Part shown: positions 1,436 to 64,000 of the stretch, in pieces | Layout: the number at the start of each line of letters is the position of its first letter | Numbering within the stretch: position 1 is the first letter of the stretch | NCBI RefSeq assembly: GCF_028368995.1 | Contig: NZ_JAQNDL010000001.1 | Location: 3,776,001 to 3,840,000 of the forward strand | Length of the DNA stretch: 64,000 nucleotides | Source of the DNA: Nannocystis bainbridge | GTDB lineage: Bacteria > Myxococcota_A > Polyangia > Nannocystales > Nannocystaceae | Reading direction: 5' to 3' | Translations under genes and position numbers: made by a program | Notes under the pieces: generated by a model | The model's database searches: none | What the model saw: only the letters and a program-made list of their open reading frames with translations | Told to the model about the DNA's origin: nothing

Positions 1436-1641
1436 GCGGCGGCGCCTGCGAGGATATGTCTTTCGGGACATATCCTCGGGGCGCGCGATTCGACCTGTCC
1501 CGAAGGACATCCATGGCGCGGCCTCGCATCGGGCTCGCGCCGCGCGCAGGTGCACCCCTGTTCAGGACGGCGCCTGCCGCGCGGGAACGCACCTTTCATC
1601 GGCTTCACCGCCGAGGGCGCTCGAGCTGATATCCTCGGCCC

Positions 1642-3720
1642 GTGATCCTCGACCCTCAGCTCGCCCGGCTGGCTGAGTGGTTCGCGGCGCTCCAGGGGCG
1701 AGCCGGCGAGCTGCTCGACCAGCGTTTGCGCGGAGACTGCCTCGGCGGCCTGGAGCAGGTGGCGCTGACGCTCGAGCAGCAGATACAGCCGCCGCTCGCG
1801 CCGGAGGAGGCGCTCGTCACCCTCGCGGACGACGACAACCGCCACCCGCTGTCGCGCACGCGCTGGCGGGCGGTGCTCGAGCACGAGATCCGGCCGGCCA
1901 TCCACGGCGCCCGCGACACCCTCACCGCCACCGCCGCCTCCTTCTCCGAGGGCATGGCGGCCGCCGGGCTGCTGACCGACCTCGCGCGCACCGTCGCCGA
2001 GGAGCCCGAGATCTACTTCCTCGAGCGCGCCGCCCCGGACGACGGCGACGACGCCCCGACCGAGCCGGAGCAGATCGCCGTGCCGCTGCGCCGCTGGCTC
2101 GGCGAGGTGTTCGCCGAGCCGGTGCGCGGCCTCGTCGAGGAGCTCACGCGCCGCGCCGCCGCCCTCGCCCGCGACGCCGCCGCCGAGCTCGAGCGCATCG
2201 AAACCGTGCTCGACTACCACCTCTTCATCGTCGAGGACAGCCGCGAGGTCGACGCGCGCGACGAGTCGGCCCACACCGGCCTCGGCCACGCGATCCGCCT
2301 GGTGCGCGCGCTGTCCGAGCGGACCGCTCGCGGCGTCCGGCGCCTGTTCGAGTGGTTCGTCGCCGAGAGCTCCGCGCGCATGGACGACGCCCTCGCCCCG
2401 CTGCGCACCCACCGGCCCGACGAGCTCCTGCAGCAGCTCGAGGCGCGCGCTGCCCGGTCGCGCGCCTCGTGGCTCCGAGCCCAGCGCGACCGCGCACGCC
2501 TCGGCGCTCTGGCGCTCTACGGTCGCGCCGCGCCGGTAGTCCGCGAGCTGGCCCAGGACGTGCGCCGCACCTTCACCGGCGAGGGCCCGCGGGTCGGCTA
2601 CTGGGACCTCCTGATCGCCGGAGAGAACCGCGCCGGCAGCCTGCCCGCGATCTACCGGCGCCTGTTCGGCGAGGTCCCGCTCGGCCTGTCGGACCTCTAC
2701 CAGCACCGCCTGCGCCTCGAGGCCCCGTGCCGCGAGGTGTTCCAGACCTGGCTCGCCGGCCAGCGCGTCGCCTTGCTCGTCACCGGCGATCGCGGGGCCG
2801 GCAAGCGCACCCTCGTCAACCGCGTGCGCGCCGAGCTGCACGGCGAGCTCCCGGTCCACTGGATCTCCATGGGCCCGCACCTGGCCAGCGAGGCCCGCCT
2901 GTGCGCCGCCCTGTGCGAGGCCACCGGCGCCCCCTACGCCGGCAGCTTCCGCGAGTTCGCGCGGACCGTCCCGCTGATCGGCGGGCGGCGGGTGCTGATC
3001 CTCGAGAACGCCGAGCAGCTGTTCGTGCGCACCCCCGAGGGCCTCGCGCGCATGCAGGCCTTCCTCGACCTGGTCCGCGGCACCGACGAGGCGATCCTGT
3101 GGGTCGTGTTGATGGCCGCGCCCGCGGCCACGCTGCTCGAGACCTGCCTGCGGCTGCCGCTGTACTTCGGCCAGGTCGTGCACGTCCCGGCCGAGAGCGG
3201 GCGCTTCATCGAGAGCATGATCCGCTCGCGCCACCGCGTCAGCGGCTTCGGCCTCGGCTTCCGCGAGCGCCGCGCCCCCGCGCTACAGCGGCTGCGGCGG
3301 CCGTTCACCCGCGCCGACATGCTGCCCGACCCGGGCGAGGAGTGGTTCACCGACCTCGAGCGCATGTGCGGCGGCAACCTGCGGCAGGCGCTCGACTACT
3401 GGCTGCTCTCGGCCCGCCTCGACGCCAAGACCCAACACGACATCCTCGTGCGCCCGCTGCCGCGCCGCCGCGGCACCGCGCTGAACGACCTGTCGCTGCC
3501 GCAGCGGCAGGTGCTGGTCAGCCTGGTCCAGCACGGCGCGCTGACCGAGGGGCAGCTGCAGGAGATCGTGCGCACCACGGCCGGCGGCATCGGTCCCGAG
3601 ATCGACGACCTGCGCCGGCGCCACCTCGTCGACCAGGGCGGGCCCGGCGGCTTCCTCACTCTCCGTCCCACCGCCGTCGGCCCCGTCACCCACGACCTCC
3701 GCTGGCGCAGCATGATCTGA
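1642..3720 (+). CDS. P-loop AAA-family ATPase with helical N-terminus and C-terminal wHTH-like region
   Basis: Walker A GDRGAGKRT, Walker B-like LILENAE; high GC3 coding pattern. Confidence 0.7.
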   Translation: MILDPQLARLAEWFAALQGRAGELLDQRLRGDCLGGLEQVALTLEQQIQPPLAPEEALVTLADDDNRHPLSRTRWRAVLEHEIRPAIHGARDTLTATAASFSEGMAAAGLLTDLARTVAEEPEIYFLERAAPDDGDDAPTEPEQIAVPLRRWLGEVFAEPVRGLVEELTRRAAALARDAAAELERIETVLDYHLFIVEDSREVDARDESAHTGLGHAIRLVRALSERTARGVRRLFEWFVAESSARMDDALAPLRTHRPDELLQQLEARAARSRASWLRAQRDRARLGALALYGRAAPVVRELAQDVRRTFTGEGPRVGYWDLLIAGENRAGSLPAIYRRLFGEVPLGLSDLYQHRLRLEAPCREVFQTWLAGQRVALLVTGDRGAGKRTLVNRVRAELHGELPVHWISMGPHLASEARLCAALCEATGAPYAGSFREFARTVPLIGGRRVLILENAEQLFVRTPEGLARMQAFLDLVRGTDEAILWVVLMAAPAATLLETCLRLPLYFGQVVHVPAESGRFIESMIRSRHRVSGFGLGFRERRAPALQRLRRPFTRADMLPDPGEEWFTDLERMCGGNLRQALDYWLLSARLDAKTQHDILVRPLPRRRGTALNDLSLPQRQVLVSLVQHGALTEGQLQEIVRTTAGGIGPEIDDLRRRHLVDQGGPGGFLTLRPTAVGPVTHDLRWRSMI

Positions 3721-3744
3721 CCCTCAGGACATGTCCTTTTGACC

Positions 3745-5997
3745 ATGGTCTTCGGCACAGCCGTCATGACGCTCACGGACACCGCCGCCCAGGCCGGCGC
3801 AGCCGGCGAGGTGGTCCTCAAGTCGCTCGGGCACCACGCGGTGTTCTTGCTGCTGCTGCAGCTCGCGGTGCTGCTGGCGACCGCGCGGCTGCTCGGCGAG
3901 CTGCTGCGCAAGTTGAAGCAGCCGGCGGTGATCGGCGAGCTGGCCGCCGGGGTGCTGCTCGGGCCCTCCGTGCTCGGCGCGCTGGCGCCCGAGCTGCAGC
4001 ATTACGTGTTCCCGCGCGACCAGCACCAGGCCGACCTGCTGTCGGTGGTGTCGTGGCTCGGCGTCCTGTTCCTCATCATCGTCACCGGGCTCGAGACCGA
4101 CATCGGCCTCATCAAGCGCCGGGGCAAGAGCGCGCTGCTGATCTCGAGCTGCGGGATCACCATCCCGCTGCTCGCCGGCGCCACCTTCGGCTGGTACTTG
4201 CCCGAGGTCTACCTGGCCGACCCGAGCAAGCGGCTGGTGTTCGCGCTGTTCATGGCGGTGTCGATGAGCATCTGCGCGGTCCCGGTGATCGCCAAGGTGC
4301 TGATGGACCTCAAGCTGATCCGGCGCGACATCGGCCAGCTGATCCTCGCCTCGGCGATGACCGACGACACCGTCGGGTGGATCCTGCTCGCCGTCGTCGC
4401 CGGCCTCGCCACCGCCGGGCAGGTCGACCCGGTCTCCGTCGCCGAGGCCGTCGGCGGCGCGCTGGTGTTCCTCGGCCTGATGTTGACCGTCGGCGTGCCG
4501 ATCGTCGCGCGCATCATCTCCGGCGTCGACCGGCGGATCGGCGGCGTCAACGCCCAGACCTCGCTGGTCATCGCCCTCGCCCTCGGGGCCGCCGCGCTGA
4601 CCCACCAGATGGGCATCGAGGCCGTGCTCGGCGCCTTCGCCATCGGCATCCTCGCCGGCCAGGCCCCGCGGTTCCGCCGCGAGGTCGGGCACACCCTCGA
4701 GGTCGTCACCGCCAGCTTCCTCGCCCCGATCTTCTTCGCGTCGGCCGGCGTCAAGGTCGACCTCGCGCGGCTCGCCAACCAGGAGGTCGCGCTCGTCGGC
4801 CTCGCCGTGCTCGGGCTCGCGTGCGCGTGCAAGATCGCCGGCGTCTACGTCGGCGCCGCCCTGGCCCGCCTGACGCACTGGGAGCGGCTGGCCATGGGCT
4901 TCGGCATGAACGCCCGCGGCGCCATGGAGATCGTCGTCGCCACCGTCGGCCTCGGCCTCGGCATCCTCACCATCGAGCTCTACTCGATCATCGTCATGGT
5001 CGCGATCGTGACCTCGATGATGGCGCCGCCGATGCTGCGGTGGGCGCTGTCGCGGGTGAAGATGGGCGAGAGCGAGGCGCGGCGGCTCGAGGCCGAGGCG
5101 ATCGCCGCCAGCAGCTTCATCCGCCAGATCCGCCGGGTCCTGCTCGTCACCCGGCACGCGCACAGCTTCGACCTGCCGGCGCAGATCATCGGCTACATCA
5201 GCCACAAGCAGCCGATCGAGGCCACCGCCGTGTACGCCCGGCCGCTGGCCGTGCGGCGCCCGTGGTGGCAGTTCTGGAGCCGTCGCGGCCGGCGTTACGC
5301 GGCGGTCGGCGCCAAGGCGCTCGAGCGGATCGGCCGGCCGCTGCGGCTGCTCAAGGGTTCGCGGCCCGAGCTCAAGATCATCAGCGACCCTGACCCGGCC
5401 GAGCAGGTGTTGACCGAGGCGCACCGCGACTACGAGCTGCTGGTGCTGGGCGAGGTCCACCGCGGCACCGAGGCGCTGTTCGGGCCGATGGCCGACCGCA
5501 TCATCCACAAGGCCCCGTGCCCGACCCTGATCGTGCGCGAGCCGGCGCGGGAGCTCGTGCCCGGGCAGCCGCCGCTCTATCGCCTGTGGTCGCCGAAGAA
5601 GATCCTCGTGCCCACCGTCGGCACCGAGTACAGCAAGAACGCCGTCGAGCTCGCGGCCGTGCTCGCGGCCAGCACCAAGGCCGAGGTCACGATCCTCCAC
5701 ATCTCGCGCACCGGCTCGAACGACGTCGACTCCGCGCGGCCGCACGAGATCGGCGCTCAGATCGTCGCTCGCGAGGCCGAGCGGGCCAAGAAGTTCGGCG
5801 CCAGCGTCGAGACCGTCGTCCTCGAGGGCGCCCGGCCCGAAGAGGACATCGTCCACCTGGCCGCGCAGGGGAGCTTCGACCTCATCGTGCTCGGCAGCAG
5901 CCTGCGCGCCGTCTCGGCCCGCGCCTTCTTCGGCCACCGCGTCGAGAGCGTGCTGAAGAACGCCCCCTGCCCGGTCCTGCTGCTGAGCGCCGGTTGA
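3745..5997 (+). CDS. CPA2 cation:proton antiporter fused to C-terminal universal stress protein (USP) domains, copy 1
   Basis: About 12 TM helices, GELAAGVLLGPS, AMTDD and GMNARGAMEI motifs; USP motifs KILVPTVG and FFGHRVESVLKNAPCPVL; start 3745 or 3766. Confidence 0.88.
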   Translation: MVFGTAVMTLTDTAAQAGAAGEVVLKSLGHHAVFLLLLQLAVLLATARLLGELLRKLKQPAVIGELAAGVLLGPSVLGALAPELQHYVFPRDQHQADLLSVVSWLGVLFLIIVTGLETDIGLIKRRGKSALLISSCGITIPLLAGATFGWYLPEVYLADPSKRLVFALFMAVSMSICAVPVIAKVLMDLKLIRRDIGQLILASAMTDDTVGWILLAVVAGLATAGQVDPVSVAEAVGGALVFLGLMLTVGVPIVARIISGVDRRIGGVNAQTSLVIALALGAAALTHQMGIEAVLGAFAIGILAGQAPRFRREVGHTLEVVTASFLAPIFFASAGVKVDLARLANQEVALVGLAVLGLACACKIAGVYVGAALARLTHWERLAMGFGMNARGAMEIVVATVGLGLGILTIELYSIIVMVAIVTSMMAPPMLRWALSRVKMGESEARRLEAEAIAASSFIRQIRRVLLVTRHAHSFDLPAQIIGYISHKQPIEATAVYARPLAVRRPWWQFWSRRGRRYAAVGAKALERIGRPLRLLKGSRPELKIISDPDPAEQVLTEAHRDYELLVLGEVHRGTEALFGPMADRIIHKAPCPTLIVREPARELVPGQPPLYRLWSPKKILVPTVGTEYSKNAVELAAVLAASTKAEVTILHISRTGSNDVDSARPHEIGAQIVAREAERAKKFGASVETVVLEGARPEEDIVHLAAQGSFDLIVLGSSLRAVSARAFFGHRVESVLKNAPCPVLLLSAG

Positions 5998-6156: not shown

Positions 6157-8451
6157 GTGACGGCGACCATGTCCTTCTGCGCCACCCTCGCGTCCTCCTT
6201 CGATCTCTCGCTGCTCGCGGCCCTGAGCGAGCCCGCGGCCGAGGCTGCGGCCGCCGCCCCGGCCGTCCTCAAGGGCCTGTCGCACCACGCCGTCCTCATG
6301 CTGCTGGTGCAGATCGCCGTGCTGTTGGCGACCGCGCGCTTCCTCGGCGAGATCATGCGCAAGTTGAAGCAGCCGCCGGTGGTCGGCGAGCTGATGGCGG
6401 GCGTCGTGCTCGGGCCCTCGGTGCTCGGCATCGCCTGGCCCGAGGCGCAGCACCTGCTGTTCCCCAAGGACCAGCACCTCGCCGACCTGCTGTCCGCGAT
6501 CTCGTGGATCGGCGTGCTGTTCCTGCTGATCTGCACCGGCCTCGAGACCGACCTCGGCCTCATCAAGCGGCGCGGCAAGACGGCGCTGATGATCTCGGCC
6601 GGCGGCATTTTGGTCCCGTTCGCCACCGGCTTCGCCCTGGGTCAGTTCATCGACTCGGCCTACCTCGCCAACCCTGACATGCGGCTGGTGTTCAGCCTGT
6701 TCATGGCCGTGGCGATGAGCATCTCGGCGGTGCCGGTGATCGCCAAGGTCCTGATGGACCTCAAGTTGATCCGGCGCGACATCGGTCAGCTGATTTTGGC
6801 CGCGGCGATGACCGACGACACCATCGGGTGGATCTTGCTCGCGGTGGTCGCCGGCCTGGCCAAGACCGGCGTGGTCGACGTCGTCACCGCGCTCAAGTCG
6901 GTCGGCGGCGCGGTCGTCTTCATGCTGTTCGCCTTCACGCTCGGCGCGCCGCTGATCGCCCGGGTCATGGCCACCGTCGACAAGCGGTTCGGCGGCGCCG
7001 GCTCGCAGATGTCATTGGTCCTGGCGCTCGCGTTCGCCACCGCCGCCTTGACCCACGAGATGGGCATCGAGGCCGTGCTCGGCGCCTTCACTGTCGGCAT
7101 CCTCGCCGGTCAGGCTCCGCGGTTCCGCCACGAGGTCGGGCACACCCTCGAGCTCGTCACCGCCAGCTTCCTCGCCCCGATCTTCTTCGCCTCGGCTGGC
7201 GTCAAGGTCGACCTCATGCGCCTCGCCGACCCCGAGGTCGCCCTCGTCGGCGCCGTCGTGCTCGCCATCGCCTGCTTCGGCAAGTTCGTCGGCTGCTATC
7301 TCGGCGCCTGGGCGTGCAAGATTCCCCACTGGGAGCGGCTCGCGCTCGGCTCCGGCATGAACGCCCGCGGCGCCATGGAGATCATCGTCGCCACCATCGG
7401 CCTCAGCCTCGGCGTCCTCACCGTCGAGATGTACTCGATCGTCGTCATGGTCGCGATCGCCACCTCGCTGATGGCCCCGCCGCTGCTGCGCTGGACCCTC
7501 TCCAAGGTCCGCATGGGCGAGACCGAGGCCAAGCGGCTCGAGATGGAGGCGCTGGCGGCCAGCAGCTTCATCCGCCAGGTGCGGCGCGTCCTGCTGGTCG
7601 GGCGCAGCGCCACCCGCTTCGACCTGCCGGCGCAGATCCTCGGCTACCTCAGCCACAAGCAGCCGATCGAGGTCACCGCCGTCTACGCCCGGCCGCAGGC
7701 GGTGCGGACCCCGTGGTGGCGCGGCCTGACGCGGCCGGTGCGGCGGTTCCACGCCGCCGGGGCCAAGGCGCTCGAGCGGATCGGTCGGCCGCTGCGGCTG
7801 CTCAAGGGTTCGCGGCCCGAGCTCAAGGTCATCAGCGACCCTGACCCGGCCGAGCAGGTGTTGGCCGAGGCTGCGCGCGACTACGAGCTCGTCGTGCTCG
7901 GCGAGAGCCACCGCAGCACCGAGGCGCTGTTCGGGCCGATGGCCGACCGCATCATCCACAAGTCGCCGTGCCCGACCCTGGTCGTGCGCGAGCCGGCGAC
8001 CCGGCCGAGCGAGGGCGGCAAGCCGCCGCTGTACCGCGTGTGGACGCCGAAGAAGATCCTCGTGCCGACTGTCGGCACCGAGTACAGCAAGAACGCCGTC
8101 GAGCTCGCGGCCGTGCTCGCCGTCAGCACCAAGGCCGAGGTCACGATCATCCACATCTCGCGCACCGGCTCGAACGACGTCGACAGCGCGCGGCCGCACG
8201 AGATCGGCGCCCAGATCGTCGCCCGCGAGGCCGAGCGGGCCAAGAAGTTCGGCGCCAGCGTCGAGACCGTCGTCACCGAGGGCGCGCGACCCGAGGAGGA
8301 CATCGTCCGCATCGCCGCGCAGGGCGGCTACGACCTGCTCGTCATCGGCAGCAGCCTGCGCGCCGTCTCGGCCCGGGCCTTCTTCGGCCACCGGGTCGAG
8401 AACATGCTGAAGAACGCGCCCTGCCCGGTCGTGCTGCTCAGCGCCGGCTGA
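6157..8451 (+). CDS. CPA2 cation:proton antiporter-USP fusion, copy 2
   Basis: Tandem paralogue of 3745-5997 with the same motifs. Confidence 0.88.
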   Translation: MTATMSFCATLASSFDLSLLAALSEPAAEAAAAAPAVLKGLSHHAVLMLLVQIAVLLATARFLGEIMRKLKQPPVVGELMAGVVLGPSVLGIAWPEAQHLLFPKDQHLADLLSAISWIGVLFLLICTGLETDLGLIKRRGKTALMISAGGILVPFATGFALGQFIDSAYLANPDMRLVFSLFMAVAMSISAVPVIAKVLMDLKLIRRDIGQLILAAAMTDDTIGWILLAVVAGLAKTGVVDVVTALKSVGGAVVFMLFAFTLGAPLIARVMATVDKRFGGAGSQMSLVLALAFATAALTHEMGIEAVLGAFTVGILAGQAPRFRHEVGHTLELVTASFLAPIFFASAGVKVDLMRLADPEVALVGAVVLAIACFGKFVGCYLGAWACKIPHWERLALGSGMNARGAMEIIVATIGLSLGVLTVEMYSIVVMVAIATSLMAPPLLRWTLSKVRMGETEAKRLEMEALAASSFIRQVRRVLLVGRSATRFDLPAQILGYLSHKQPIEVTAVYARPQAVRTPWWRGLTRPVRRFHAAGAKALERIGRPLRLLKGSRPELKVISDPDPAEQVLAEAARDYELVVLGESHRSTEALFGPMADRIIHKSPCPTLVVREPATRPSEGGKPPLYRVWTPKKILVPTVGTEYSKNAVELAAVLAVSTKAEVTIIHISRTGSNDVDSARPHEIGAQIVAREAERAKKFGASVETVVTEGARPEEDIVRIAAQGGYDLLVIGSSLRAVSARAFFGHRVENMLKNAPCPVVLLSAG

Positions 8452-10462: not shown

Positions 10463-10955
10463 CAGCCACGTGTGCCACACACGGGCGAGCCGCTCAAACG
10501 CAAACTGCGGGCTCGCCAGCGTGCCCTCGCGTGCACACGGGAAGTCTGCCCGCCTGCATGTGCGGCCGCTTGCGCGCTCGCGCCCGTGCGCTCGCCTCGC
10601 AACTCCGCGTCTGCGGGTCGGCGACGCCACGCGTCCGAGCGGCCTGTCTTTCGAGACAGCTGTTGCTCGAGACAGCTCCGATCGGCGCAGGAGCCGTCGG
10701 GGACGCGGTGCGACACGCCATCTGTCTCTCGGGACATCCGGCGGACGGCACGCGAGCGCGCGACGACCGTCGCGTGGCGCGCGCTGCGTGACCTGAGCTG
10801 TCGCTCGTCACGCCGCCCGGCGCACGACGGTCGTCGCGGACCCGCACACGTCTGACTTGTCTCTCGCCTCACCCAGGCGCGCACCCGACTCGGGCGCGAA
10901 GCCTGCGGAGCGCGGCCGTCCCGGTCGGGGGACAGCAGCGCGCGCCGCGGGTGCG

Positions 10956-11871: not shown

Positions 11872-14800
11872 CTACGGCGCGTCCGGGGTGGTGTCGGCCT
11901 GGGCCGTGCGCTTGGTCGGCGGCGGGTCCGGCTCGACCTTCGGCGCCGGGGTCTTCTGCCCCTCGGCGCCGGTGCGGCCGAAGGTGCGGCGCCAGAACAG
12001 GTCGAGGCCGCCGACCGCGGCGTCGCCGAAGAACGTCTCCACCGACCACTGCGGCTTGAAGCGGTACTCGAACGAGCCCTGGATGCGGTTGTTCCGGATC
12101 GGCGCGTTGTGATGGTAGGTCGTCTCGGCGTAGATCTTCTTCGTCAGGTGCTTGCCGACGCTCAGCACCGGCTGCGTGACGTCGTCGGCGAAGCCGAACT
12201 TGATGCGGTCGATGCCGAGCTTCTGATCGGCGAAGCGCGACAGCGTCGGGTTGCTGAAGTTGACGAGCAGGCCGGCGGCGCTCGCCTGGGTCTTCTTCGG
12301 GTCGCTCTCCTGAGTGTCGGCGCTGCCGGTCAGCAGCAGGGCGAAGATCTGGCCCTCGGTCAGCGACGGGCGCGAGCGCAGCTTGAGCGCGGGCCGGCTG
12401 AGGCGGCCGCGGATCGCCACGTTGACCTCGGCCTGCGGCGTGGTCGTGTCGGCGGTGAGGTCGAGGTACGGGTCGATCGTCGAGCCGTCCTCCGGCAAGA
12501 ACACGCGGCCCTGGTCGATGGTGAAGCGGTTGCCGAGCAGCTCGAAGCGGCCGCGGTCGGCCCGGAAGCCGCCAGTGACCCCGGCCTCCTCGCCCTTGCG
12601 GTGCAGCGCCAGCGCGCCGCTCCAGCTCATGTCCATCGTCGGGCCCTTGATGTGCACCGGGGCCTTGAGCCGCACCGCGAGGTCGAACTGGCTGCTCTGG
12701 ACGTCGGCCGTCGGCGGCTTTTTGGTCGGCGGAGCCGTCGCCTCCTCGGCCTGCACCACCGGCGTCTCCTTGTCGCTCAAGGCGCCTGCCTGGCTGCCGA
12801 GCGCGGCCTGCAGCTCGGGCAGCGGCCCGCTGACGATCGTGATGTTGTCGTTCTCGGGCACCGGGTCGGGCGCGCGCGTGGTGAGGTCGGAGACCCAGAT
12901 CTCGGCGCCGTCGACGTCGATCTTGACCCCGAGCCCGGCCGCGCTGCGCTTCACGTCGGCGCTCACGTGCGTGTCGATGATCATCTGCGGCAGGCCGGGG
13001 CGGACCACCGGGAACTTGCGCAGGTCGAGCTGAGCGTCGGCGTCGACCCTGCCGCCGCTGGCGAACGTCACCTTGCCGTCAGCCTTGACCCGGCCCTCGC
13101 CGCTGGTCGCGGTGAGGCTGGTCAGCTTGACCTCGGGCCCGTCGGCGAGGATCTCGAAGTTGAGGTCGCGGAACCGCTGCTGCAGGGCCACCACGGTCAC
13201 GCCGCCCTTCTGCAGGCGGGCCGAGCCTCGCAGCTTGGGCTTGCCGATGACGCCGCCCGCGGTGATCTCGCTCGAGAAGAAGCCGGTGAAGTCGTAGATG
13301 GCCTCGGGGAAGAAGCCGCTGAGGTAGCGCAGGTCGGTCGCCTCGGCCTTGAGCTCGCCACGCATCGGGGTGTCGGTCAGCTTGGCCTGCTTGGCCCGCA
13401 GCTTCGGGATCGAGGCGGTGGTGTCGGCCGAGAACTCGAGCCAGCCCCGCTTCTTGTCGCGCTGGCCGAAGCTGCCGCGCACCGTCTGCTTGGCGTCGCC
13501 CACGTCGAGCTGGATCTTGAGCGGCTGGCCGCCGAGCACCTTGTGGCCGATCTCTCCGAGCACCTGGGCCTCGGCGTGCACGGTCTTGGCGTCGAGCTCG
13601 GCCGTGGCGTGGATGTTGAGGGCCACCACCGCCTGCTGCGGCAGCGGGCTGAACGGCTCGAGCGCGTCGTGGTCGAGGTTCTTGACGTCGAGCTTGGCCT
13701 TGGCGGGCCGCTCGGTCGCCCACGCGAACTCGCCCGACGCGAGGTCGATGTCGAGCGGCACGCGCCCGCCCAGCTCGATGGTGGTGATCTTGCCGAGCCG
13801 ACCGTGAGCGCCGACCTTGGCCAGGCCGTCGCGGTACTCGACGTCGGCCCGCAGCGCGCCGACCGGCTGGCCCTTGAACGCCAGCTTGTCGGCACGCACG
13901 GCCCCGACCAACTTGGGGTGGCGACCGGCGCCGTCGAAGGTCACGCCGCCGGTGATCCGGCCGGCGAGGTTGAGCCCGAGCAGCGGCTCGAGCGGCGCCA
14001 GCTCGAGCTCGCGAAGGTCGAGCATCAGCGCGTACCAGCCGTCGCGACGCCAGCGCACGCCAGAGGCGTCGAGCGCGAGCGGGGCCAGGCCGCGCAGCTG
14101 GAACTGCCCGACCTGCCCGCCGCCGCCCGAGATGTCGACGGCGACCCCGCCGTCGCGCATGGTCGCGACCAGCGACAGCGCGCCGAACTCGATCCGGCGG
14201 TGCATCAGGCGCTCGCCGTGCAGCTCGGCCTGCAGCTCCGGCTTGGTCGCCGGGCCAGTCATCTCGGCCTTCAGCGTCAGCTTGCCGCCGGCGTCGTGGC
14301 CGGGCGCGAGCGCGTCGAGCTGGTCAGCCACGTCGATGTCGTCGAGCTGGACCAGGACCCGGTGCTCGCGCTCGCGGTGCCAGGCGAACTTGCCGCGCAG
14401 CGGGTCGAGCTCGATCGGCACCTGCACGTCGACCTGGGCCCGACCGCCGCTGCGGTGGAGATCGACCTTGCCCTGCAGCCAGTCGCCGCGGTGCGTGACG
14501 CTGACCGCGACGTCGCCGACCGGCGCGCCCGAGATCGTCAGCCCCTTCGCGCGCCACTCGGTCACCACCCGCGGGGTCGCCAGCGGGCCGTCTGTGCCGT
14601 TGGCCTCGAACAGGACCATGCCGTCGAGCCGGCCGGTCAGCTCCGGCTGCTTGAGCCACGGCCGCAGCCGGTCGAGCCGGACCTCCTGGGCCTGCAGCTC
14701 GAGCTTGGTGTACGTATGTCCGATCGAGCCTGTCCTTAGCGACATGTTCACGTGGACAGGCGCCTGCGCGCGCAGCTCGAGCTTGCGCGCCAGCGGCCCG

Positions 14801-21578: not shown

Positions 21579-21597
21579 ACCTCTTTTTTAAAGAGAG

Positions 21598-40331: not shown

Positions 40332-40426
40332 TCTCTGTGAACCACACCTACAACTGCCTCATCCCCGCGCCGCCTGCCCCGGCCTCATCGCCGCAGCCCT
40401 GCTGACCGACGTCCCTTCGGACAGCC

Positions 40427-52814: not shown

Positions 52815-52856
52815 GTGTCCACAGAACATGTCCTCGAGGACATGTCTACTGGGACA
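52815..52856. repeat. Three-unit TGTC-N6-GACA array
   Basis: AACA TGTC CTCGAG GACA TGTC TACTGG GACA. Confidence 0.85.
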
Positions 52857-57107: not shown

Positions 57108-58850
57108 CTACGGCTCTTGCAGCGCCGCGAGCACCTGACCGATCTCCGTCAGCTCCGGATCGCCGGGCAGCGCCTTCTTCGCCGCCTCGAGTCGCTCCCA
57201 CGCGCGGTCGATCGCGCCGACGTCGCCGGCGTCGTACTGGATCGTGCGCAGCGCCGCCGCGTAGGCCAGCACCGCCTCGCCCTTCTCCAGCCAGCCCGTC
57301 TCGCCGGACAACAGCTGGGTCAGCTTCCACTCGGCGCTGGTCTGCTTGGCCTCGCCCGTGAGCGCGTCGACCCAGAGGATCTCGACCTGCACCACCCCTT
57401 GCGGGTCGAGCTCGTCGACGCACGGCCGCAGGCGGCGGTGGATCACCGAGTTGTCGGTCGGCGCCGCGGTCACGTGGTCCTGGCCGAGCACCTGCGCCTC
57501 GTCCGGCACGTCGGCCACCAGCTCGAGGCCCGGCGGCAGCGTCACGCGGACATCGACCGCCGAGGCCGTCAACCCGACCAGGCTGAGGAAGCGCTGGCCG
57601 AGCTGGGTCTCGGCCGCGCCGCCGCTGCCGACGTAGATCGAAGGGCCCGCGCCGGCCACCCCGATCGCGTCGATGAGGCCGCTGCGGTAGAGGCCCGGGT
57701 CGCCGACGCCGACGCCGATCGCGTGCACGCCGGTCTTGTTGGCGACGTCGCCGGCCCGCTTGGCCATCTGCTCGAGGTCGTCCTGGGTCGCGGTCGCGCC
57801 GCCGTCGCTGACGAGGATCAGGCGGTTGATGTCCTTCGGGACATACGCCTTGTCGGCCTGCGCGTAGCCGGCGGTCAGCGCCTGCGTCAGCTCGGCCGAG
57901 CCGCCGACGGTGAACCCGTCGATCGCCGCCAGCAGCTCCTTGTCGTGCGGGCCGGACACCATCTTCACCGGCAAGAGCGGCGCGTCGGCCTCGTTCCAGC
58001 TGACCACCGCCACCGTGTCGCCCGCGCGCAGCTTGCCGGCCAGCACGTGGCCGGACTGCTTCAGCAGCTCCAGCGCCTTGCCCTCCATCGAGCCCGAGTT
58101 GTCGAGCGCCAGCGTCAGGTGGACCGGCGGGCGGTCGGCCTCGGCCAGCTCGGGGCCGCGGATCGCCACCTGCAGCTCGTAGAGGTCGCCGAGGTCATCC
58201 TGGCTCGCGCGCAGCTGCGCCCCCGCGAGCAGCTGCCCCGGCGACGCCGCCGGATAGGCGAACGTGTAGTAGTTGAGGAATTCCCACGGGCGGATCGACA
58301 CGCTCGTCAGCGACGGCCACTGCCCGAGCATCGCCTCGCGCGCGTGGGCCGGCGACGACATCGCGTCGGGGTCGCGCGCCGCCAGCCGCCACCCCGTGGT
58401 CTGGTCACCCGCGCACACCACGTCTTCGGGGACGTTCTGCGGGTCCTTCTCGTCGATCGGAGCCGGCTCGTCCGAGGGCGGCGCTGGCAGCTCGCTGGTG
58501 CCCGAGGTCGAAGCGCCGCCGGTCTCGTCGTTGCCGGTGGTGACCGCCCCGTCGGACGCCGCCGTCGTGCCCTCGCCGCTCGATTCGCCCTGCGAGGCCG
58601 ACAGCCCGGAGGCGAAGCCACCGAAGCCGTCGGTGTCGGTGTCGCCGTCCTGAGCGCCGCCGACGTTGGCCGCCGACGAGCACCCGGCCGCCAGCACCGT
58701 CAGCGCCAGGCTCCACGGCCCCAGCAGCGCGCCGGGGTGGGACCACCGGGGCCGCGCGCGCGGCTCGTTTTCGGGGCGAACTGCGTCCGCGGGGCTGGCG
58801 GCAGCAGGGGTTGACGGACACACGGGGGGGGACCCGCGAAGAGAGGACAT
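57108..58850 (-). CDS. vWA-domain (YfbK-like) lipoprotein
   Basis: LAAGC lipobox, IRPWEFLNY, MIDAS DNSGSM, LVSDG. Confidence 0.85.
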   Translation of the reverse strand: MSSLRGSPPVCPSTPAAASPADAVRPENEPRARPRWSHPGALLGPWSLALTVLAAGCSSAANVGGAQDGDTDTDGFGGFASGLSASQGESSGEGTTAASDGAVTTGNDETGGASTSGTSELPAPPSDEPAPIDEKDPQNVPEDVVCAGDQTTGWRLAARDPDAMSSPAHAREAMLGQWPSLTSVSIRPWEFLNYYTFAYPAASPGQLLAGAQLRASQDDLGDLYELQVAIRGPELAEADRPPVHLTLALDNSGSMEGKALELLKQSGHVLAGKLRAGDTVAVVSWNEADAPLLPVKMVSGPHDKELLAAIDGFTVGGSAELTQALTAGYAQADKAYVPKDINRLILVSDGGATATQDDLEQMAKRAGDVANKTGVHAIGVGVGDPGLYRSGLIDAIGVAGAGPSIYVGSGGAAETQLGQRFLSLVGLTASAVDVRVTLPPGLELVADVPDEAQVLGQDHVTAAPTDNSVIHRRLRPCVDELDPQGVVQVEILWVDALTGEAKQTSAEWKLTQLLSGETGWLEKGEAVLAYAAALRTIQYDAGDVGAIDRAWERLEAAKKALPGDPELTEIGQVLAALQEP

Positions 58851-59051
58851 GGCGACCTCAGACAAGGAGTAATTCAGTGGGTCGGGCCGAAGCCCGCGGC
58901 CTGGAGGCCCGCCCGAAGCCCGCACGGGGCCCGGAGCGCAAAGTCGGGACGCAAGAGGCCGAACTCGGCCCGACATCAGTATATCGGGCCTCGCCGCGGC
59001 GCGCCAACCGGCGGCGGCGACCGGGCCCTCCCCGGCGAGCGCAGACCGGCG

Positions 59052-60314
59052 TCAAGTCGCGGGCGGCCCGAGCACCCGGTCGAGGGCGGCGCGGATCCAT
59101 GCGATGTGATCGTAGTCGGAGCGGCCGCTGATGGCCTGCGGCGCCACGACCCGCGCCACCACGTGGCCGGGGGAGTCATGCGCTTCGGCCGGGCGCTCCA
59201 CGAGGTGGATCTCCACCTCCTCCGGACACCCGCTGCACCGCGGCAACGCTACCTGACCGCCGTAAGCGTCGACGCAGTCGCGATAGTGCAGCCCGATGAC
59301 CTCCGGGGCTTCGACGGCGAAGCCCGAGCGGTCGAATTCCCCCAGCCGCACCATCACCAGGCCGAGCCCGTGCAGGAAGTATGTCGCCTGCTGCAGCGCC
59401 GGCAGGTCGCGCACCAGCCCGTCGAGCTCGAGGTCGACGCTGCCGAAGCGCCGCATCCCGCGGGTCGTGAGGCGCACCGCTTCGGGCTGGCGCGGGTCGA
59501 CGAACGGGACCACCGCCACCTGGTCGGCGACGTTGCCGAGGCTGGCCTGCAGCCGGCGCGCAGCGAACGCCGCCGGCCCGAAGGTCTCGAGCGTGTCGGG
59601 GTCGTGCACCAGCGCGCCGGTGTCGGCCGCCACCGCCCGCACCAGCGCCTGCAGCAGGCGCAGCCCGCGGACCGCGTTCTGGTTGCGGTAGAGCGCGCGC
59701 ACCATCACCAGCTGGGTGCGCTCGGGCAGGCTGGCCCGCTCCTCGGGCTCGAGCGCCCGCGTCAGCTCGGGGTCGGCCAGCAGCTTGGGCTCGACCGCCG
59801 CGGCCGGCAGCGCGTCGATCTCGAGGCCCAGCAGGTCGGACGTGGCCCACACCCGGGCCGCCGCCTCGGGGTCGAGCGGCGGCTCGTCGGCCCTGGCCTG
59901 CGGGGCAGCCTGCCCCGGCCCGTGCAGCGCGCTCAGGTCCGCGCGCGGCGGCGTCGCCACCAGGTCGAGCAGCAGCTCGACCTCCGGGTCGCCCACGCTC
60001 TCGGCGAACATCCGGCGCACGATCGCCTGCAGCTCCTCGCGCGTCGGGGCCGGCCCGGGCGGTCCGGGTAGCAGCAGCACGTACCCGAAGGAGATCCGGT
60101 CGGCGAACACCACCCGGTGGGCGGCGGCCTCGGCCCGGCGCGCCTCCTCGGCCGCCAGCTCCGCGGGCGTCGGCTCGGGCGGCGGCGCCTCCTTCGTCGG
60201 GCTCGGCGCCGGCTGCTCGGGCGCCGTCGCGCTCGGCCGCGCCTGCTCGGCCGGGCGCCCGCAGGCCAGCCCGTACACCAGGACATGTCCCAACAGACAT
60301 GTCCGATTAAGCAT
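59052..60314 (-). CDS. Hypothetical lipoprotein
   Basis: GLAC lipobox, Pro-rich linker, TTRGMRRFGSVDLEL; start 60314 or 60338. Confidence 0.65.
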   Translation of the reverse strand: MLNRTCLLGHVLVYGLACGRPAEQARPSATAPEQPAPSPTKEAPPPEPTPAELAAEEARRAEAAAHRVVFADRISFGYVLLLPGPPGPAPTREELQAIVRRMFAESVGDPEVELLLDLVATPPRADLSALHGPGQAAPQARADEPPLDPEAAARVWATSDLLGLEIDALPAAAVEPKLLADPELTRALEPEERASLPERTQLVMVRALYRNQNAVRGLRLLQALVRAVAADTGALVHDPDTLETFGPAAFAARRLQASLGNVADQVAVVPFVDPRQPEAVRLTTRGMRRFGSVDLELDGLVRDLPALQQATYFLHGLGLVMVRLGEFDRSGFAVEAPEVIGLHYRDCVDAYGGQVALPRCSGCPEEVEIHLVERPAEAHDSPGHVVARVVAPQAISGRSDYDHIAWIRAALDRVLGPPAT

Positions 60315-60356
60315 TGTCCTTCGAGCCATGTCCTTCATGACCTGTCCCGAAGTTCA
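60272..60356. repeat. Six-unit TGTC-N6-GACA array overlapping a gene start
   Basis: GACA TGTC CCAACA GACA TGTC CGATTA AGCA T TGTC CTTCGA GCCA TGTC CTTCAT GACC TGTC. Confidence 0.85.
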
Positions 60357-61319
60357 CACCGATCCCGCGTGGCGGGTCAGCAGCGCCGCGACCCGATCGG
60401 GCTCGACGTTGCCGCCCGACAGCAAGATCCCGACCCGACGCCCGCGCAGCGCCCCCGACAGCGTCGCCGCCACCGCGGCCGCGCCCGACGGCTCGACCAG
60501 CACCTTGGCGTGCAGCAGCACCGCCACCAGCGCTCGCCCGAGCGCCTCGTCGTCGACCTCGAAGCTGCCGCGGACCACCCGGCGGGCGATCTCGAAGTTG
60601 TGCGCGCCGACGCGGACCGGCTTCAGCCCGTCGGCCAGGGTCGGCCCCGGCGGCACGCCCACGCGCTCGCCGGCGGCCAGGCTCCGGGCCAGCGCGTTGC
60701 AGGTCCCGGGCTCGGCGCCGTAGACCGCGATGTCGGCCGCCTCGGCGACCAGGCAGGCCCCGGCGATCAGGCCCCCGCCGCCGACCGGCGCCACGATCGC
60801 GTCGAGCTTCGACCCGTGGGCCGCGACCTCCTCGACCAGCTCGAGGGTCGCCGTGCCCTGGCCGGCGATGACGTCGGGGTCGTCGAACGGCTCGACGATC
60901 GCCCCGCCGGTCCGCGCCTGGACCGCGAGCGCCGCCGCGCGCCGCTCCTCCGAAGTCGTCCCGGCGAACACGATCTCGGCCCCGAGCGCGCGCACGCCCG
61001 CGACCTTGACCGCCGGCGCGTCGGTCGGCATGGCGATCGTCGCCGGCACCCCGAACTCGCGCGCTGCCAGGGCCACCGCCTGCGCGTGGTTGCCGGAGCT
61101 GTAGGTGATCACGCCGCGGTCGCGGGCCGCCGGGCTCAGGCGCCCGACCGCGTGCAACGCCCCGCGCGCCTTGAACGCCCCGACCCGCTGCAGGCACTCG
61201 GCCTTGAGCCACAGCTCGGCCCCGGCCAGCGCGTCGAGGGCCGGCGAGCGGAGCACCGGTGTCCTCACGACCTTCCCGGCGAGGCGCTCGGCCGCGGCGC
61301 GCACGTCATCGACGGACAT
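60354..61319 (-). CDS. PLP-dependent threonine/serine dehydratase or racemase (fold type II, no ACT domain)
   Basis: [38 protein letters not shown]. Confidence 0.9.
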
Positions 61320-61375
61320 CGTCACGCACGCCAGGCTACACCCGCGGCCGCGGCTTTGGTACGACTCTCCCGCTC

Positions 61376-63841
61376 GTGGCCTTCGGACCCGTCTTTCGCC
61401 CGCCGACCTGGGCGCTGTTCGCACTCGCCGCCCTCGCCGTCGTCGCGCTCAGCGCCTGGTCGATGGCCGCCTGCGGCCCGTGGGACCCGTGGGAGACCCA
61501 TTACGGCGAGGTCGCGCGGCAGATCCTCGTCCGGAACGACCCGCTCGACCTGTGGTGGAAGCCCGGAGTCGGCCCCGACGGCAACGCCGAGAACACCTTC
61601 TGGTCCAAGCCTGCCCTGCCGTTCTGGCTGATGGCCGTCAGCATGAAGCTGCTCGGCATCGGCCTCGGCGCCGCCCCTGACGAGATGGTGCGCGCCCCCT
61701 GGCCCGAGCTGGCGATCCGCCTGCCGAGCATGATCACCGGCCTGGGCTGCGCCGCCTTCCTCGGCTGGGCCTGCGCCCGCTTGCTCGCCGCCGCCCGCCC
61801 CGCCGAACCCGGCCAGGCGGTGCGCGCCGGCTTCTACACCGCCCTCGCCCTCGTCACCATGCCGCAGTGGGCGATCGTCAGCCGCCAGGCGCTGACCGAC
61901 ATGTTCTTCGTCGCCCCGGTGACGCTCGCCATGGCCGCCTGGGCCCTCGCCTGGCTGCGCCCCGACCGTGCGCTGGGCCGCCGCGCCCTCGTCGATCTGC
62001 TCCCGCGTCGCCTCCGATTCGTGAACTCCGGCGTCGGTCCCAATGGTCATGTCTCTTCCGACATGTCCAAAAAGACAGACATTACCGCGCCCGCGGACCT
62101 GTCCGCTCGTACAGGCGCCGCTCTGACCGCAGCCGGCGACATGTCCCCGAAGCCAGGCGATCCCGCGCTCGCGCCCGCGACCCCGGACCTGTCCGCATCG
62201 TCAGCTTCGCCGGCCCACGCGACCGATCTCTCGCGCCGCGCCGGGACCGATCTCCCGCGCGCCGACTCCGCCAACTCGACGCCTGCGGCCACCGGCTGGC
62301 GCGCGCGCCTGCCCGCGATCGGCCGCCTGCAGCTGCCGTGGGACCGGGCCTACCTCGGCTTCCTCCTGCTCTTCCTGCTCGCGGTGGTCGCCCCGATCGT
62401 CGCCCTCGACCTCCACGTCAGCAGCGACCACACCGTCGCCCGCGTGTCGCGCTTCGTGAAGAAGCCCGGCGTCCCCAACTTCGCCACCCTGGTGAAGATC
62501 CACCTCGTCATGCTCGGCTACGCCGCCGTGGCCCTGCTGGTGCTGCTGCGGACCCTCCGCTGGCGCACGCGGGCCCAGGTGTGGATGGGCGTGCTCTACC
62601 TCGCCGCCGGCATCTCGCTGATCGGCAAGGGCATGATCGGCCCGGGCCTGGTCGGCCTGCTGGTGCTGCTGCACCTGATCGTCGGCGGCCGCCTCACCCT
62701 CGCCAACCTGTGGCGCTGCGGCCCGCTGACGGGCCTCCTGCTGTTCGCGCTGGCCTCGCTGCCGTGGCACCACGCGATGTGGATCTACCGCGGCGACCCG
62801 TGGCTCAACGAGCTGATCATCGTCAACAACCTGGCCCGCTTCGGCAGCGGCGAGCAGGACCAGGCCGTCGGCGGCTTCGCCTACTACCTGCGCACCCTCG
62901 GCATCGCCGCCCTGCCGTGGTCGGCCGCCCTGCCCGCCGCGCTGTGGGCCGCCGCCCGCCGGCTGCGCGGTGACGGTCCTTCGGGGCATGTCCCCGAGGA
63001 CCTGTCGCAATCACCAGGTCCCGAAGGACATGTCGCCACGGACATGTCTCCCGCCCCGCGCGAGGCCACGGGCGAGCTGTGGCGCTTCGCCCTGCTGTGG
63101 TTCTTCGCCACCCTGGCGCTGCTGACCACCAGCGTCACCAAGTACTACCACTACCTGCTGCCGACCCTGCCGCCGCTGGCCCTGCTGCTGGGCCTGTGGC
63201 TGAGCGAGCCGGCCCCGGCCGCGCGGGACCGCAAGCTCGCCTGGGCCGCCGCGGGCCTCGGCGCCGCCCTGCTCGCGCTGGTCCTGCGCGACGCCATCGT
63301 CGAGCCGGCGTGGATCACCCACCTCACCACCTACCTCTACGACCACATGTGGCGCAACGGCGCGCCCGAGACCACGGGCCTGGTCGCCTGCGCCCTGCCG
63401 TTCGCCCTCGGCCTGGCGCTGTGGGCCGCGCGGCGCCAGCGGGCCGCGCTCGTCGCCATGCTGCTGGCCGGCTTCATCACCCTGCACTACACGCTCAACA
63501 GCTACCTGCCCGCGGTGTCGGAGCACTGGTCGCAGCGCTCGGCGCTCCGCCACTACTACGACCACCGCGGCCCCGACGACCCGCTGGCCAGCTGGTGGTT
63601 CTACTACCGCGGCGAGACCTTCTTTACGAAGGGCGCCGTGTGGGTGAAAAAAGAGGCCGACCGCGAGGCCCTGGCCGAGCTGATCGACGCCAACCGCGGC
63701 CACGGCCGCAACGTCTGGATCATCACCACCGGAGGCCACGGCGCCCGCGCCAAGAGCTCCCTGCCCGCCGACCTGCGCTCCCGCAGCGAGGTCGCCTACG
63801 ACAACGCCCACTACACCCTGCTCAAGGTCCCCGTCCCCTAG
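61376..63841 (+). CDS. ArnT-like GT-C glycosyltransferase (PMT/GT39-83 type)
   Basis: [36 protein letters not shown]; multi-TM; GTG start at 61376 inferred. Confidence 0.82.
62975..63048. repeat. Five-unit in-frame TGTC-N6-GACA array inside the ArnT-like gene
   Basis: GGTC CTTCGG GGCA TGTC CCCGAG GACC TGTC GCAATC ACCA GGTC CCGAAG GACA TGTC GCCACG GACA TGTC. Confidence 0.85.
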
Positions 63842-64000
63842 GACCTGTCCCGTGGGTCAGGCGACCTCGTCCGCAATAGTCGCGTCCCCCGCGGGAACGC
63901 GGCGCCTACGAGCTCAAGGTCCCTGTCCCCAGGGCCTGCCCCTTCACGAGCCCTCGCATCCGAACGCGCCGTCCAGTGCGCGAGCAGGCCACCACTCTCT

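Follow-up and report, generated by a model that had tools for sequence, protein, structure and literature searches.

Uptake sequences, namely the DNA uptake sequence (DUS) of Neisseria and the uptake signal sequence (USS) of Pasteurellaceae, arise by point substitution and often lie as inverted pairs just downstream of genes. At orthologous positions HIP1, the highly iterated palindrome GCGATCGC found in cyanobacteria, is better conserved than the sequence next to it. Cooperative operator arrays are represented by the met-boxes of MetJ, the heptads of the omega repressor and the 14-bp operators of phage 434 (ACAA-N6-TTGT). For repetitive extragenic palindromes (REP) and bacterial interspersed mosaic elements (BIME), the accessible part of a survey of prokaryotic REPs lists proposed roles in termination, mRNA stability and supercoiling (PMC3733652). 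In the same part, GTAG or CGTC tags are the basis on which REP superfamilies are defined, CGTC REPs are also reported without a REP-associated tyrosine transposase (RAYT), and Rickettsia palindromic elements and other intragenic REPs are described as palindromic repeats within protein-coding genes (PMC3733652). The present work concerns the bipartite palindrome TGTC-N6-GACA in a stretch of 64 kb, referred to as the window (G000:C1:3776001-3840000), of a genome of 11.05 Mb in five contigs with ~71.5% G+C. The motif can be rated among the highly iterated genomic palindromes and extragenic repeats. It fails the defining tests of REPs, of miniature inverted-repeat transposable elements (MITEs) and of intrinsic terminators. 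It is tentatively interpreted here, at slightly short of an even chance, as a genus-specific docking site for a symmetric protein that would bind double-stranded DNA cooperatively and form a platform at the ends of transcription units.

An initial annotation of the window had listed 36 perfect sites by coordinate. A pattern count recovers all 36 and no others, and 100 dinucleotide-preserving shuffles of the window yield a mean of 0.66 and a maximum of 5, so that 0 of 100 reach 36. Both full arms (TGTCC...GGACA) are present in 19 of the 36 sites, and the window contains 17 GACATGTC junctions. Arrays were built from perfect seeds and extended where at least 7 of 10 arm positions match, a definition that depends on the seeds and on the threshold; seeded arrays across the window comprise ~50 units.

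The spacer length is highly specific. Across the genome the pattern with k = 6 occurs 3663 times, and every other k from 0 to 19 gives counts of 29–175, including the frame-equivalent spacers k = 3 (66), k = 9 (48) and k = 12 (63). The spacer k = 20, which corresponds to the span of two units, is found 984 times, the GACA-TGTC junction 2237 times and GACA-N14-TGTC 1305 times. Arms of 5 bp sharpen the contrast, with 1987 copies of TGTCC-N4-GGACA against 0–16 at the other spacers in the range 1–8. When mismatches are tolerated, 4258 units match at 9/10 (background 98–322) and 7530 at 8/10 (background 2058–5923). Perfect 10/10 units in the genome thus number ~2000, and all units that can be recognised are estimated at roughly 9500. 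When every palindromic pair of 5-mers with spacers of 0–12 was scanned de novo, only facets of the TGTCC-N4-GGACA motif came up; the form ATGTC-N6-GACAT, for example, occurs 1458 times and may be compatible with the PadR consensus ATGT-N8-ACAT. As a separate feature of this genome, the tetranucleotide CTAG is strongly avoided, with 1509 copies where a Markov model predicts 7649 (ratio 0.20), and GTAC mildly (0.80).

Open reading frames (ORFs) were called with our own crude caller based on G+C at third codon positions (GC3), which is not a curated annotation; it gave 7915 ORFs and 85% coding sequence, and all placement statistics depend on it. Within these ORFs the motif is observed 1509 times. 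Shuffling of synonymous codons gives 108.6 ± 8.9 and within-gene shuffling of codons 49.2 ± 5.9, so that the excess over these two codon-aware nulls is 14–31-fold. The spacers k = 3, 9 and 12 occur 27–43 times, at or below the expected 42–56. The excess specific to k = 6, which had been set beforehand as a check, therefore holds, and an artefact of codon usage is ruled out. The annotation had also taken the motif to be chromosome-wide. It is indeed present on all five contigs, at 45–75 units per 100 kb. Density varies locally without a gradient along the contigs. Most contigs look like single replichore arms because the cumulative GC skew of C1, C2, C4 and C5 has its extremes at both contig ends; only C3 has an internal maximum, at 1.47 of 2.0 Mb. 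A genome scan found no super-cluster of sites; the densest 3-kb intervals hold 13–19 units.

The full consensus in the position matrix is RCM-TGTCC-N4-GGACA-KGY. Isolated single units (n = 2032) retain the flanks, with R at position -3 (0.85), C at -2 (0.62) and M at -1 (0.94), mirrored on the opposite side. The site is therefore a 20-bp palindrome. Conserved flanks more than 3 bp outward are absent from both the position matrix and the isolated single units. The four centre positions are variable, and the 3663 perfect sites comprise 854 distinct 14-mers. There is a preference for Y at position 5 and R at position 8. The two central positions have ~48% A+T, compared with 28.5% in the genome, and the central step favours CG, TC/GA and TT/AA over GC, CT/AG and AC/GT.

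Units are arranged in a strict register. Autocorrelation of half-sites peaks at multiples of 14 bp only, with values of 682, 315, 299, 150, 79 and 71 from lag 14 to lag 84, and at lag 98 the value of 20 equals the background median of 20. This bears out the 14-bp period that had been noticed in the window. Multiples of 42 bp, corresponding to three units and four helical turns, are relatively enhanced, and a 7-bp direct arrangement of half-sites is absent genome-wide. In total, 3419 arrays with 6199 units were found, with 2032, 731, 309, 108, 124, 85, 24 and 6 arrays of one to eight units, respectively. Arrays thus extend up to about 7–8 units, or from 14 to ~100 bp. Head-to-tail perfect pairs with differing spacers are present in the window at 23579/23593, 32854/32868, 52829/52843 and 62050/62064, as initially described.

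The initial annotation had argued that such arrays did not arise by slippage of one sequence, and the genome-wide comparison agrees. Identity between adjacent units is 0.28–0.33, barely above the 0.26–0.29 that the position matrix predicts. Among the 239 arrays of at least five units, the best spacer match to any other array is 10–15/20 for 235, taken as chance level, 16/20 for one and 20/20 for three. Slippage or tandem duplication is ruled out by the adjacent-unit identity and the lack of an outstanding lag, with few exceptions such as eight near-identical units on C3.

Symmetric half-sites, a fixed spacing and abutting sites in a fixed register are found together here. In this the motif resembles the MetJ, omega and 434 operators, whose palindromic half-sites, fixed uncontacted centre and abutting register imply cooperative dimers. 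The interpretation as a protein platform is based on the symmetric 20-bp site, its AT-enriched free centre, the lack of covariation, the strand symmetry, the unrelated spacers and the strict 14-bp register. From these features we infer a protein dimer as the reader and cooperative binding, and from the placement of the arrays a role at gene ends. A dimeric protein of the helix-turn-helix (HTH) type would read double-stranded DNA with one monomer on each 5-bp arm and leave the 4-bp centre uncontacted. The half-site centres are 9 bp apart, a geometry that would suit successive major grooves. Dimers may dock side by side in the 14-bp register, each rotated by ~120 degrees relative to the last, with three units making four helical turns.

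The position of arrays relative to genes points to transcription-unit ends. Although intergenic DNA makes up only 15% of the genome, 2103 of the 3663 perfect sites (57%) are fully intergenic, an eightfold higher density. Convergent intergenic regions have 2.45 arrays per kb, tandem regions 1.09 and divergent regions 0.42, and at least one array is present in 493 of 1347 convergent regions (37%). Of 7910 called genes, 1474 have an array whose first position is at most 100 nt past the stop codon, and 397 have one within 100 nt upstream of the start. The distance after the stop peaks at +2 (84 genes) and decays within ~20 nt. At +2 the stop codon is TGA in 72 of the 84 genes; the A of the stop codon therefore supplies the purine at -3 of the site. 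In convergent regions of at least 150 bp, 107 of 436 arrays (24.5%) lie within 10 nt of a stop, compared with 9.1% for uniform placement. Tandem regions with an array have a median length of 280 bp (239 bp without the array itself) and those lacking one a median of 51 bp. Because the array-bearing regions are long, tandem arrays lie between transcription units and not inside operons.

One three-unit array of the window (29415-29456) is an exception to this avoidance of operon-internal gaps. It fills all of the 47 bp that separate the stop at 29412 from the start at 29460, and GAGGA of its last unit could be the ribosome-binding site of the downstream gene.

By acting, for example, as a roadblock, a topological barrier or a nucleoid anchor, platforms of 14 to ~100 bp would mark the ends of genes or insulate them, comparable to the roles proposed for REP/BIME. 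Known operators of the MetJ, omega and 434 type occupy few promoters per genome, in contrast to ~3400 arrays that are mostly located after stops and rarely at promoters, as their low density in divergent regions illustrates.

Arrays that begin right after stops, at operon ends, also suit a REP-like hairpin, in which the arms would pair in the transcript or in extruded single-stranded DNA, terminate transcription or protect mRNA 3' ends, and the intragenic copies would be by-products. Like the REPs and BIMEs of enterobacteria and pseudomonads, the motif consists of abundant short palindromic units that are specific to a species or genus, located at extragenic 3' ends and in convergent regions, and organized in arrays. 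This alternative is nevertheless unlikely. Watson-Crick complementarity of spacer positions is at expectation about the unit centre (0.319 against 0.307 expected, and 0.263 against 0.259) as well as about the junction centre (0.274 against 0.281, and 0.246 against 0.258). Flanks of intergenic single units beyond 3 bp show a slight excess of complementarity at most (0.35/0.31 and 0.32/0.28 at 4–5 bp). Among arm variants that change both arms, TGCCC..GGGCA alone is enriched (2.15-fold), which by itself would suit a stem. The other complementary doubles are depleted, G/C to 0.2-fold and A/T to 0.56-fold. With complementarity at expectation and one symmetric double enriched, the arms do not show maintenance of a stem-loop by compensatory change. 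The pattern is what a protein with relaxed half-site specificity would predict, and not what base-pairing would.

Strand symmetry also argues against a function as RNA. For 1720 units oriented by their flanking genes, the loop CGAA occurs 85 times and TTCG, which would give a UUCG-type loop in the transcript, 72 times; for CTCG and CGAG the counts are 73 and 67. Differences in RNA stability between loops leave no trace in loop counts. An intrinsic, Rho-independent terminator would fit the position after the stop. This candidate was rejected since the arms form stems of 5 bp only and no T-tract follows the arrays, with T at no more than 0.27 from +4 to +40 in 322 oriented arrays. A 14–31-fold excess within ORFs would also be unexpected for a terminator, and no Rfam family was matched in the window.

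Three observations speak for the hairpin and weigh against a protein platform. Five of six arrays of the window fold as RNA better than shuffled sequences (z of -2.8 to -3.8), a result that the arms by themselves would lead one to expect. At a lag of two units, 4.0% of spacer pairs are exact reverse complements, where chance would give 1.2%. Genuine longer palindromes account for about 3% of arrays; 21596-21649 is an example, and 1450-1477 is another longer palindrome in which a motif unit of the window is embedded. Finally, variants compatible with a U.G pair outnumber C.A variants by 120 to 71 in tandem intergenic regions. This bias is reversed in ORFs (94 against 135).

In other respects the motif is unlike REPs and BIMEs. 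Its unit is 14–20 bp long, compared with 20–40 bp for REPs, and it has a strict 14-bp register, unrelated spacers and a strong intragenic excess that was made in place. Stem covariation, families of like copies, a RAYT and a GTAG or CGTC tag are lacking, the tags being compared with those given in the accessible part of the survey (PMC3733652).

Decay of a mobile miniature element, either a MITE or a REP doublet forming a hairpin (REPIN), would turn arrays into insertions of an element of ~70–85 bp. The array sizes show a bump at five and six units (124 and 85 arrays, compared with 108 of four units), phase coherence ends near 98 bp, and intergenic regions differ by indels between species, all of which would agree with such insertions. 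The low similarity of spacers makes this origin highly improbable, as the spacers of 235 of the 239 long arrays are unique and no flanks are conserved beyond 3 bp. Membership in a MITE or REPIN family was rejected because there are no families of near-identical copies, no flanks conserved over more than 3 bp, and the intragenic sites arose in place without indels or a net change in length. A RAYT or REPtron origin was also dropped: the RAYT transposase family PF01797 has 0 matches in the own genome (90.5% complete), and the control search was positive in 6 of 14 genomes. The two-unit form has 0 matches among 2.9 million viral contigs.

The motif is also abundant within genes. In total, 1438 arrays lie in called ORFs. 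For 826 of these, both 50-codon flanks have a GC3 of at least 0.86 in frame; they comprise 562 single, 188 double, 48 triple and 28 longer arrays. Intragenic arrays are spread along the genes and occupy all three frames, with 290, 209 and 63 single units. The rarest frame (63) is the one that requires Cys (TGT).

The origin of intragenic sites was followed in three close relatives of the same genus (G001, G010 and G005) and in more divergent lineages of the genus (G009, G006, G008 and G002; 67–81% nucleotide identity). The window is syntenic with all three close relatives, and most alignment blocks have 87–92% nucleotide identity (range 72–92%). The unit at 39754-39767 is situated in the 4Fe-4S domain of QueG. 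No gap is present in 30 aligned residues of 26 other family loci (25 from other genera and one from G002). These relatives typically have GPIPDELAA (CCG ATC CCC GAC GAG CTC GCC) where the window encodes GPVPEDMSE (CCT GTC CCC GAG GAC ATG TCC). The site is missing without a gap in G006, G008 and G002, and G009 has the left half only. The single unit at 46153-46166, in the HATPase ORF 45208-46857(-), is missing in G009, G006, G008 and G002 with no net change in length (the blastn alignments contain gaps of 1–2 nt). At both sites ~8–11 changes, counted by eye from the alignment, fall within 14–22 bp, and the flanks are nearly identical. By contrast, the single unit at 42389-42402, in ORF 41184-44384(-), is present in G009, G006 and G008, the three divergent lineages that align. 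Because sites are absent without net length change, the changes are clustered and G009 holds the left half, the tested intragenic sites appear to have been gained stepwise by clustered in-place substitutions, some of them non-synonymous. A corresponding outgroup comparison of the TamB-like protein gave three weak matches in 24 family genomes, too divergent for use. Rickettsia palindromic elements are likewise palindromic repeats that are tolerated in protein-coding genes. They are inserted as whole elements, unlike the tested sites, which show no net length change.

Once present, the arms are retained. At least one of the three close relatives aligns at 26 of the 36 window sites, and most keep the unit. 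Ascertainment of the sites in the own genome is a possible bias, and the three relatives were therefore compared with each other at these sites. For 17 of the 36 sites, which are gapless in at least two relatives and mostly located in called ORFs, identity is 0.927 in the arms (473/510), 0.877 in the flanks (1253/1428) and 0.789 in the spacers (161/204). A wider, ascertainment-biased sample (117 high-scoring segment pairs, 325 kb) gave 0.947, ~0.86 and 0.816, respectively, in ORFs (n = 64) and 0.931, 0.808 and 0.734 in intergenic regions (n = 16). In orthologous intergenic regions the units occupy the same place with different spacers and often in different number. The word thus does not spread by copying of an element; it appears to be built in place by substitution, even in genes at the cost of amino-acid changes, after which the arms are kept and the spacers drift.

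The intragenic excess and the in-place origin imply either weak selection at thousands of sites or molecular drive. Two forms of drive were considered. In the first, the word would be the preferred substrate of an uptake or recombination protein and would accumulate wherever it is tolerated, without local function, so that its placement reflects the lowest constraint. The motif has the properties known from DUS and USS: it is present in thousands of copies in coding and non-coding DNA, is specific to a lineage and originates by substitution; DUS and USS likewise occur about once per 1–3 kb in coding and non-coding DNA and are specific to a genus or family. Origin by in-place substitution with amino-acid changes and the ORF excess under codon-aware nulls agree with such drive, as does the order of densities, which follows the expected constraint (convergent > tandem > divergent > coding).

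The distribution of motif-free stretches fits it too. A 43-kb cluster with rpoB, rpoC, EF-Tu, EF-G and ribosomal-protein genes (G000:C2:2100542-2143127; L106 and L107) contains no motif units. A second gap, at 1.14–1.22 Mb of C1, is motif-sparse, has a lower G+C content and is rich in insertion sequences (IS), with IS66 and DDE transposases. Foreign DNA was considered as the sole cause of such stretches and rejected, as the gap on C2 is the ribosomal and RNA polymerase cluster and not foreign. The two gaps therefore have mixed causes. A tuf duplication is probable in the cluster on C2, where two EF-Tu-like ORFs (L106:15475-16674 and L107:13147-14346), both 399 aa long, have identical scores.

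Genus specificity and a density gradient among lineages are further points in favour of uptake-like drive. ComEC and DprA are present, which is compatible with it; they do not discriminate because they are also found in 10–11 of 14 control genomes. Several features make a pure uptake sequence quite unlikely. Known uptake sequences are asymmetric and are not known to form phased tandem arrays, in contrast to a bipartite palindrome with a free centre, phased arrays of up to ~8 units and an eightfold intergenic density. Arrays hug stop codons (24.5% against 9.1%) in convergent regions, where no promoter constrains them, and the strict 14-bp register would need cooperative binding anyway.

In the second form, a HIP1-like process, a genus-specific methyltransferase, nicking enzyme or short-patch repair enzyme would recognise the bipartite site, and biased repair would convert near-cognate sequence into it. 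Like HIP1, the motif is a hyper-abundant palindrome of coding and non-coding DNA, and its arms are conserved above the flanks at the 17 sites compared. The clusters of substitutions at 39754 and 46153 between almost unchanged flanks would also be expected from such conversion. It is very unlikely as a full account, since it leaves the 14-bp phased arrays and the proximity to stop codons unexplained. HIP1 is a contiguous 8-mer that is phylum-wide and is not known to form arrays or to be biased to gene ends, unlike this motif, which is bipartite, phased, biased to gene ends, eightfold enriched between genes and restricted to one genus.

For the taxonomic survey of Myxococcota the 19-mer TGTCC-N4-GGACATGTCC was used. 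It has 311 copies in the own genome and is found in 10 of 10 other genomes of the genus with 1 to 223 copies (~0.2 to 19 per Mb). The lowest counts come from fragmentary assemblies and divergent lineages, and the gradient within the genus is ~0.2 to 28 per Mb when the own genome is included. Outside the genus, 2 of 30 other genomes of the family and class have a single match each; in these genomes and in those of the genus, a reversed-pattern control gave 0 matches. Another 200 genomes of the phylum, from 142 other genera, include 3 with a single match. The motif is thus confined to one genus, probably Nannocystis, and at chance level in the 230 other genomes of the phylum. 'Dialects' of the motif in sister genera were considered and discarded, since a palindrome scan of 200 kb each from two of these genera (G013 and G019) revealed no analogous over-represented bipartite palindrome above a ratio of ~6.

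In named public genomes the two-unit form is found, among the matches listed (at least 49 stretches), 32 times in Nannocystis, 14 times in Mesorhizobium and three times in stray metagenome-assembled genomes. The Mesorhizobium matches are not the same motif, as they belong to a perfect hairpin of ~44 bp with complementary spacers. This palindrome is present in many Mesorhizobium species and consists of a C-rich arm, a core of TGTCC-TGCC-GGACA directly followed by TGTCC-GGCA-GGACA, and a G-rich arm. Copies are located at L038:5788-5900 and L007:4315-4362; in L038 two copies lie 67 bp apart, inside or between reading frames of ABC-transporter ATPases. It looks like a separate REP-like hairpin family that matches the two-unit pattern by coincidence. 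Sequencing runs retrieved for the genome are metagenome contigs from soil, wetland and roots, none of them RNA-seq of a culture, and those compared with the sites were fragmented.

The motif had initially been called undescribed. No publication describing the TGTCC-N4-GGACA palindrome, or any family of extragenic repeats in the genus, was found in the literature searched, which did not extend to supplementary files. The accessible parts of the N. exedens genome announcement (PMC5658511) and of a review of myxobacterial genomics (PMC8538405) do not describe the motif, and the accessible part of the prokaryotic REP survey (PMC3733652) does not mention Myxococcus, Sorangium, Haliangium or 'delta'. 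Three points go beyond the initial annotation: the motif is a 20-bp palindrome, its arrays lie close to stop codons where transcription units end, and it is restricted to a single genus.

What has been observed of the motif is its statistics, its anatomy and placement, its origin in place, the conservation of its arms and its restriction to one genus, whereas the protein platform is an interpretation. The cooperative dimeric protein proposed in the initial annotation agrees with the symmetry, the absence of covariation, the variable AT-enriched centre and the 14-bp register; no binding protein was found, and the reader stays a putative one. Besides the three points from RNA folding, spacers and arm variants given above, the following findings count against the platform. 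From 136 small genes with upstream perfect sites, 20 with two or three such sites were scanned with Pfam and yielded no reader protein. The families assigned are PEMT, GST, cupin, radical SAM and one ECF sigma factor, 13 genes have no family, and an HTH-type repressor or regulator is absent from these 20. No super-cluster flags a locus of the reader, as the maximum is 19 units in 3 kb. Furthermore, a function at gene ends leaves the 14–31-fold intragenic excess unexplained, and a second force must therefore be assumed. The initial annotation had named a sequence-writing or methylation-linked process as an alternative; the in-place, indel-free origin within genes keeps some form of drive alive, and the spread of the word would imply weak genome-wide selection or molecular drive tied to the same reader protein.

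A bolder version of the protein platform has a real chance, though one well below even. The motif would then be a new kind of chromosome-wide signal, in which a reader protein polymerises on the 14-bp-phased palindrome and the word is actively driven into the genome, overwrites codons and piles up at stops. About a fifth of the genes would end in a protein-coated platform that delimits transcription units. Such a system would behave in populations as uptake sequences or HIP1 do, be built like an operator array and stand outside the known repeat families.

The remaining sites of the window illustrate these arrangements. The single unit at 1457-1470 lies 21 nt past the stop of an ORF ending at 1435, and its flanks lengthen it to a longer hairpin; the single unit at 1496-1509 is nearly its reverse complement. 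Two single units (10645-10658 and 10723-10736) occupy a divergent intergenic region. The TamB-like ORF 11872-16890(-) contains a three-unit array of 42 bp (14717-14758), a single unit (15223-15236) that is kept in G001, G010 and G005, and two arrays of two units (15421-15448 and 16462-16489). An array of imperfect units without a perfect seed is present in a convergent intergenic region at 21598-21667 and belongs to the minority that form one long hairpin. Between the flanking genes of that region (21578-21779) the relatives hold 1.3–2.4 kb of extra DNA.

A two-unit array (23579-23606) is located within the ORF 23397-24152(+) of the CysZ/EI24 family. Its second unit (23593) is identical in the three close relatives, and the spacer of the first unit differs there. 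The single unit at 24156-24169 begins 3 nt past the stop of this ORF at 24152. In the convergent intergenic region 32756-33434, the two-unit array at 32854-32881 has units at the same place in the relatives, with other spacers. The same region contains a tandem repeat of ~45 bp at 32990-33260 (…cgccctcgtcgtcgcc…gctcgtcgcgcc…); a related repeat is present in the G005 ortholog and absent from that of G010. The single unit at 36845-36858 is within the amidohydrolase ORF 36715-38100(+).

Upstream of the QueG domain there are single units at 38932-38945, where the called ORF start at 38921 is probably too early, and at 39022-39035 and 39061-39074. The latter two belong to copies one and two of a 39-bp direct repeat (39022-39100), in which each copy includes the identical unit TGTCCCCGAGGACA followed by cctcactc. 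A four-unit array (40276-40331) follows QueG in a convergent intergenic region, 35 nt past the stop at 40240. Within 40240-40427, after QueG, G001 and G010 carry additional DNA in which a short reading frame is apparent; this DNA is missing here and in G005. In addition to the unit at 42389, ORF 41184-44384(-) contains a single unit at 43907-43920 and a two-unit array at 44023-44050. The single unit at 48784-48797, in a tandem intergenic region, is a perfect 14-bp palindrome.

Four single units (51246, 51301, 51372 and 51441; 51246-51454) lie in a locally duplicated segment of ~125 bp upstream of the ORF 51403/51460-52797. Each tandem segment of this region (51200-51470) holds a ribosome-binding site, an ATG, a short reading frame and two motif units, and G001 and G005 have their own versions of the repeat at this place. 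A two-unit array (52829-52856) occupies a convergent intergenic region, 31 nt past the stop at 52797. The single unit at 57830-57843, within the VWA-domain ORF 57108-58865(-), encodes Y-V-P-K-D-I. Two minus-strand ORFs flank a three-unit array (60272-60313), which begins 40 nt past the stop of one of them, 60354-61325(-). Finally, ORF 61376-63841(+) contains a three-unit array (62036-62077) and a two-unit array (63017-63044). Apart from the motif, the adjacent ORFs 3739-5997 and 6157-8451 encode paralogues of ~750 aa with ~81–83% nucleotide identity, which give off-diagonal BLAST matches in all three close relatives.

For the binning of metagenomes the motif is a sharp marker of the genus, and it is also a likely cause of assembly and cloning artefacts. 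With the 19-mer ranging from ~0.2 to 28 copies per Mb, the genus provides different stages of the process that can be compared. The creation of the word in place in the conserved QueG is a clean natural case for the choice between selection and molecular drive, a question that is also open for uptake sequences and HIP1. Canonical terminators are scarce in large, high-GC myxobacterial genomes. If a protein reads the arrays, one factor would mark ~3400 loci, or ~19% of gene ends, in an 11-Mb genome, and the literature searched describes neither this factor nor its site. Such a reader would help to show what delimits transcription units, insulates convergent transcription and organizes the nucleoid in these genomes.

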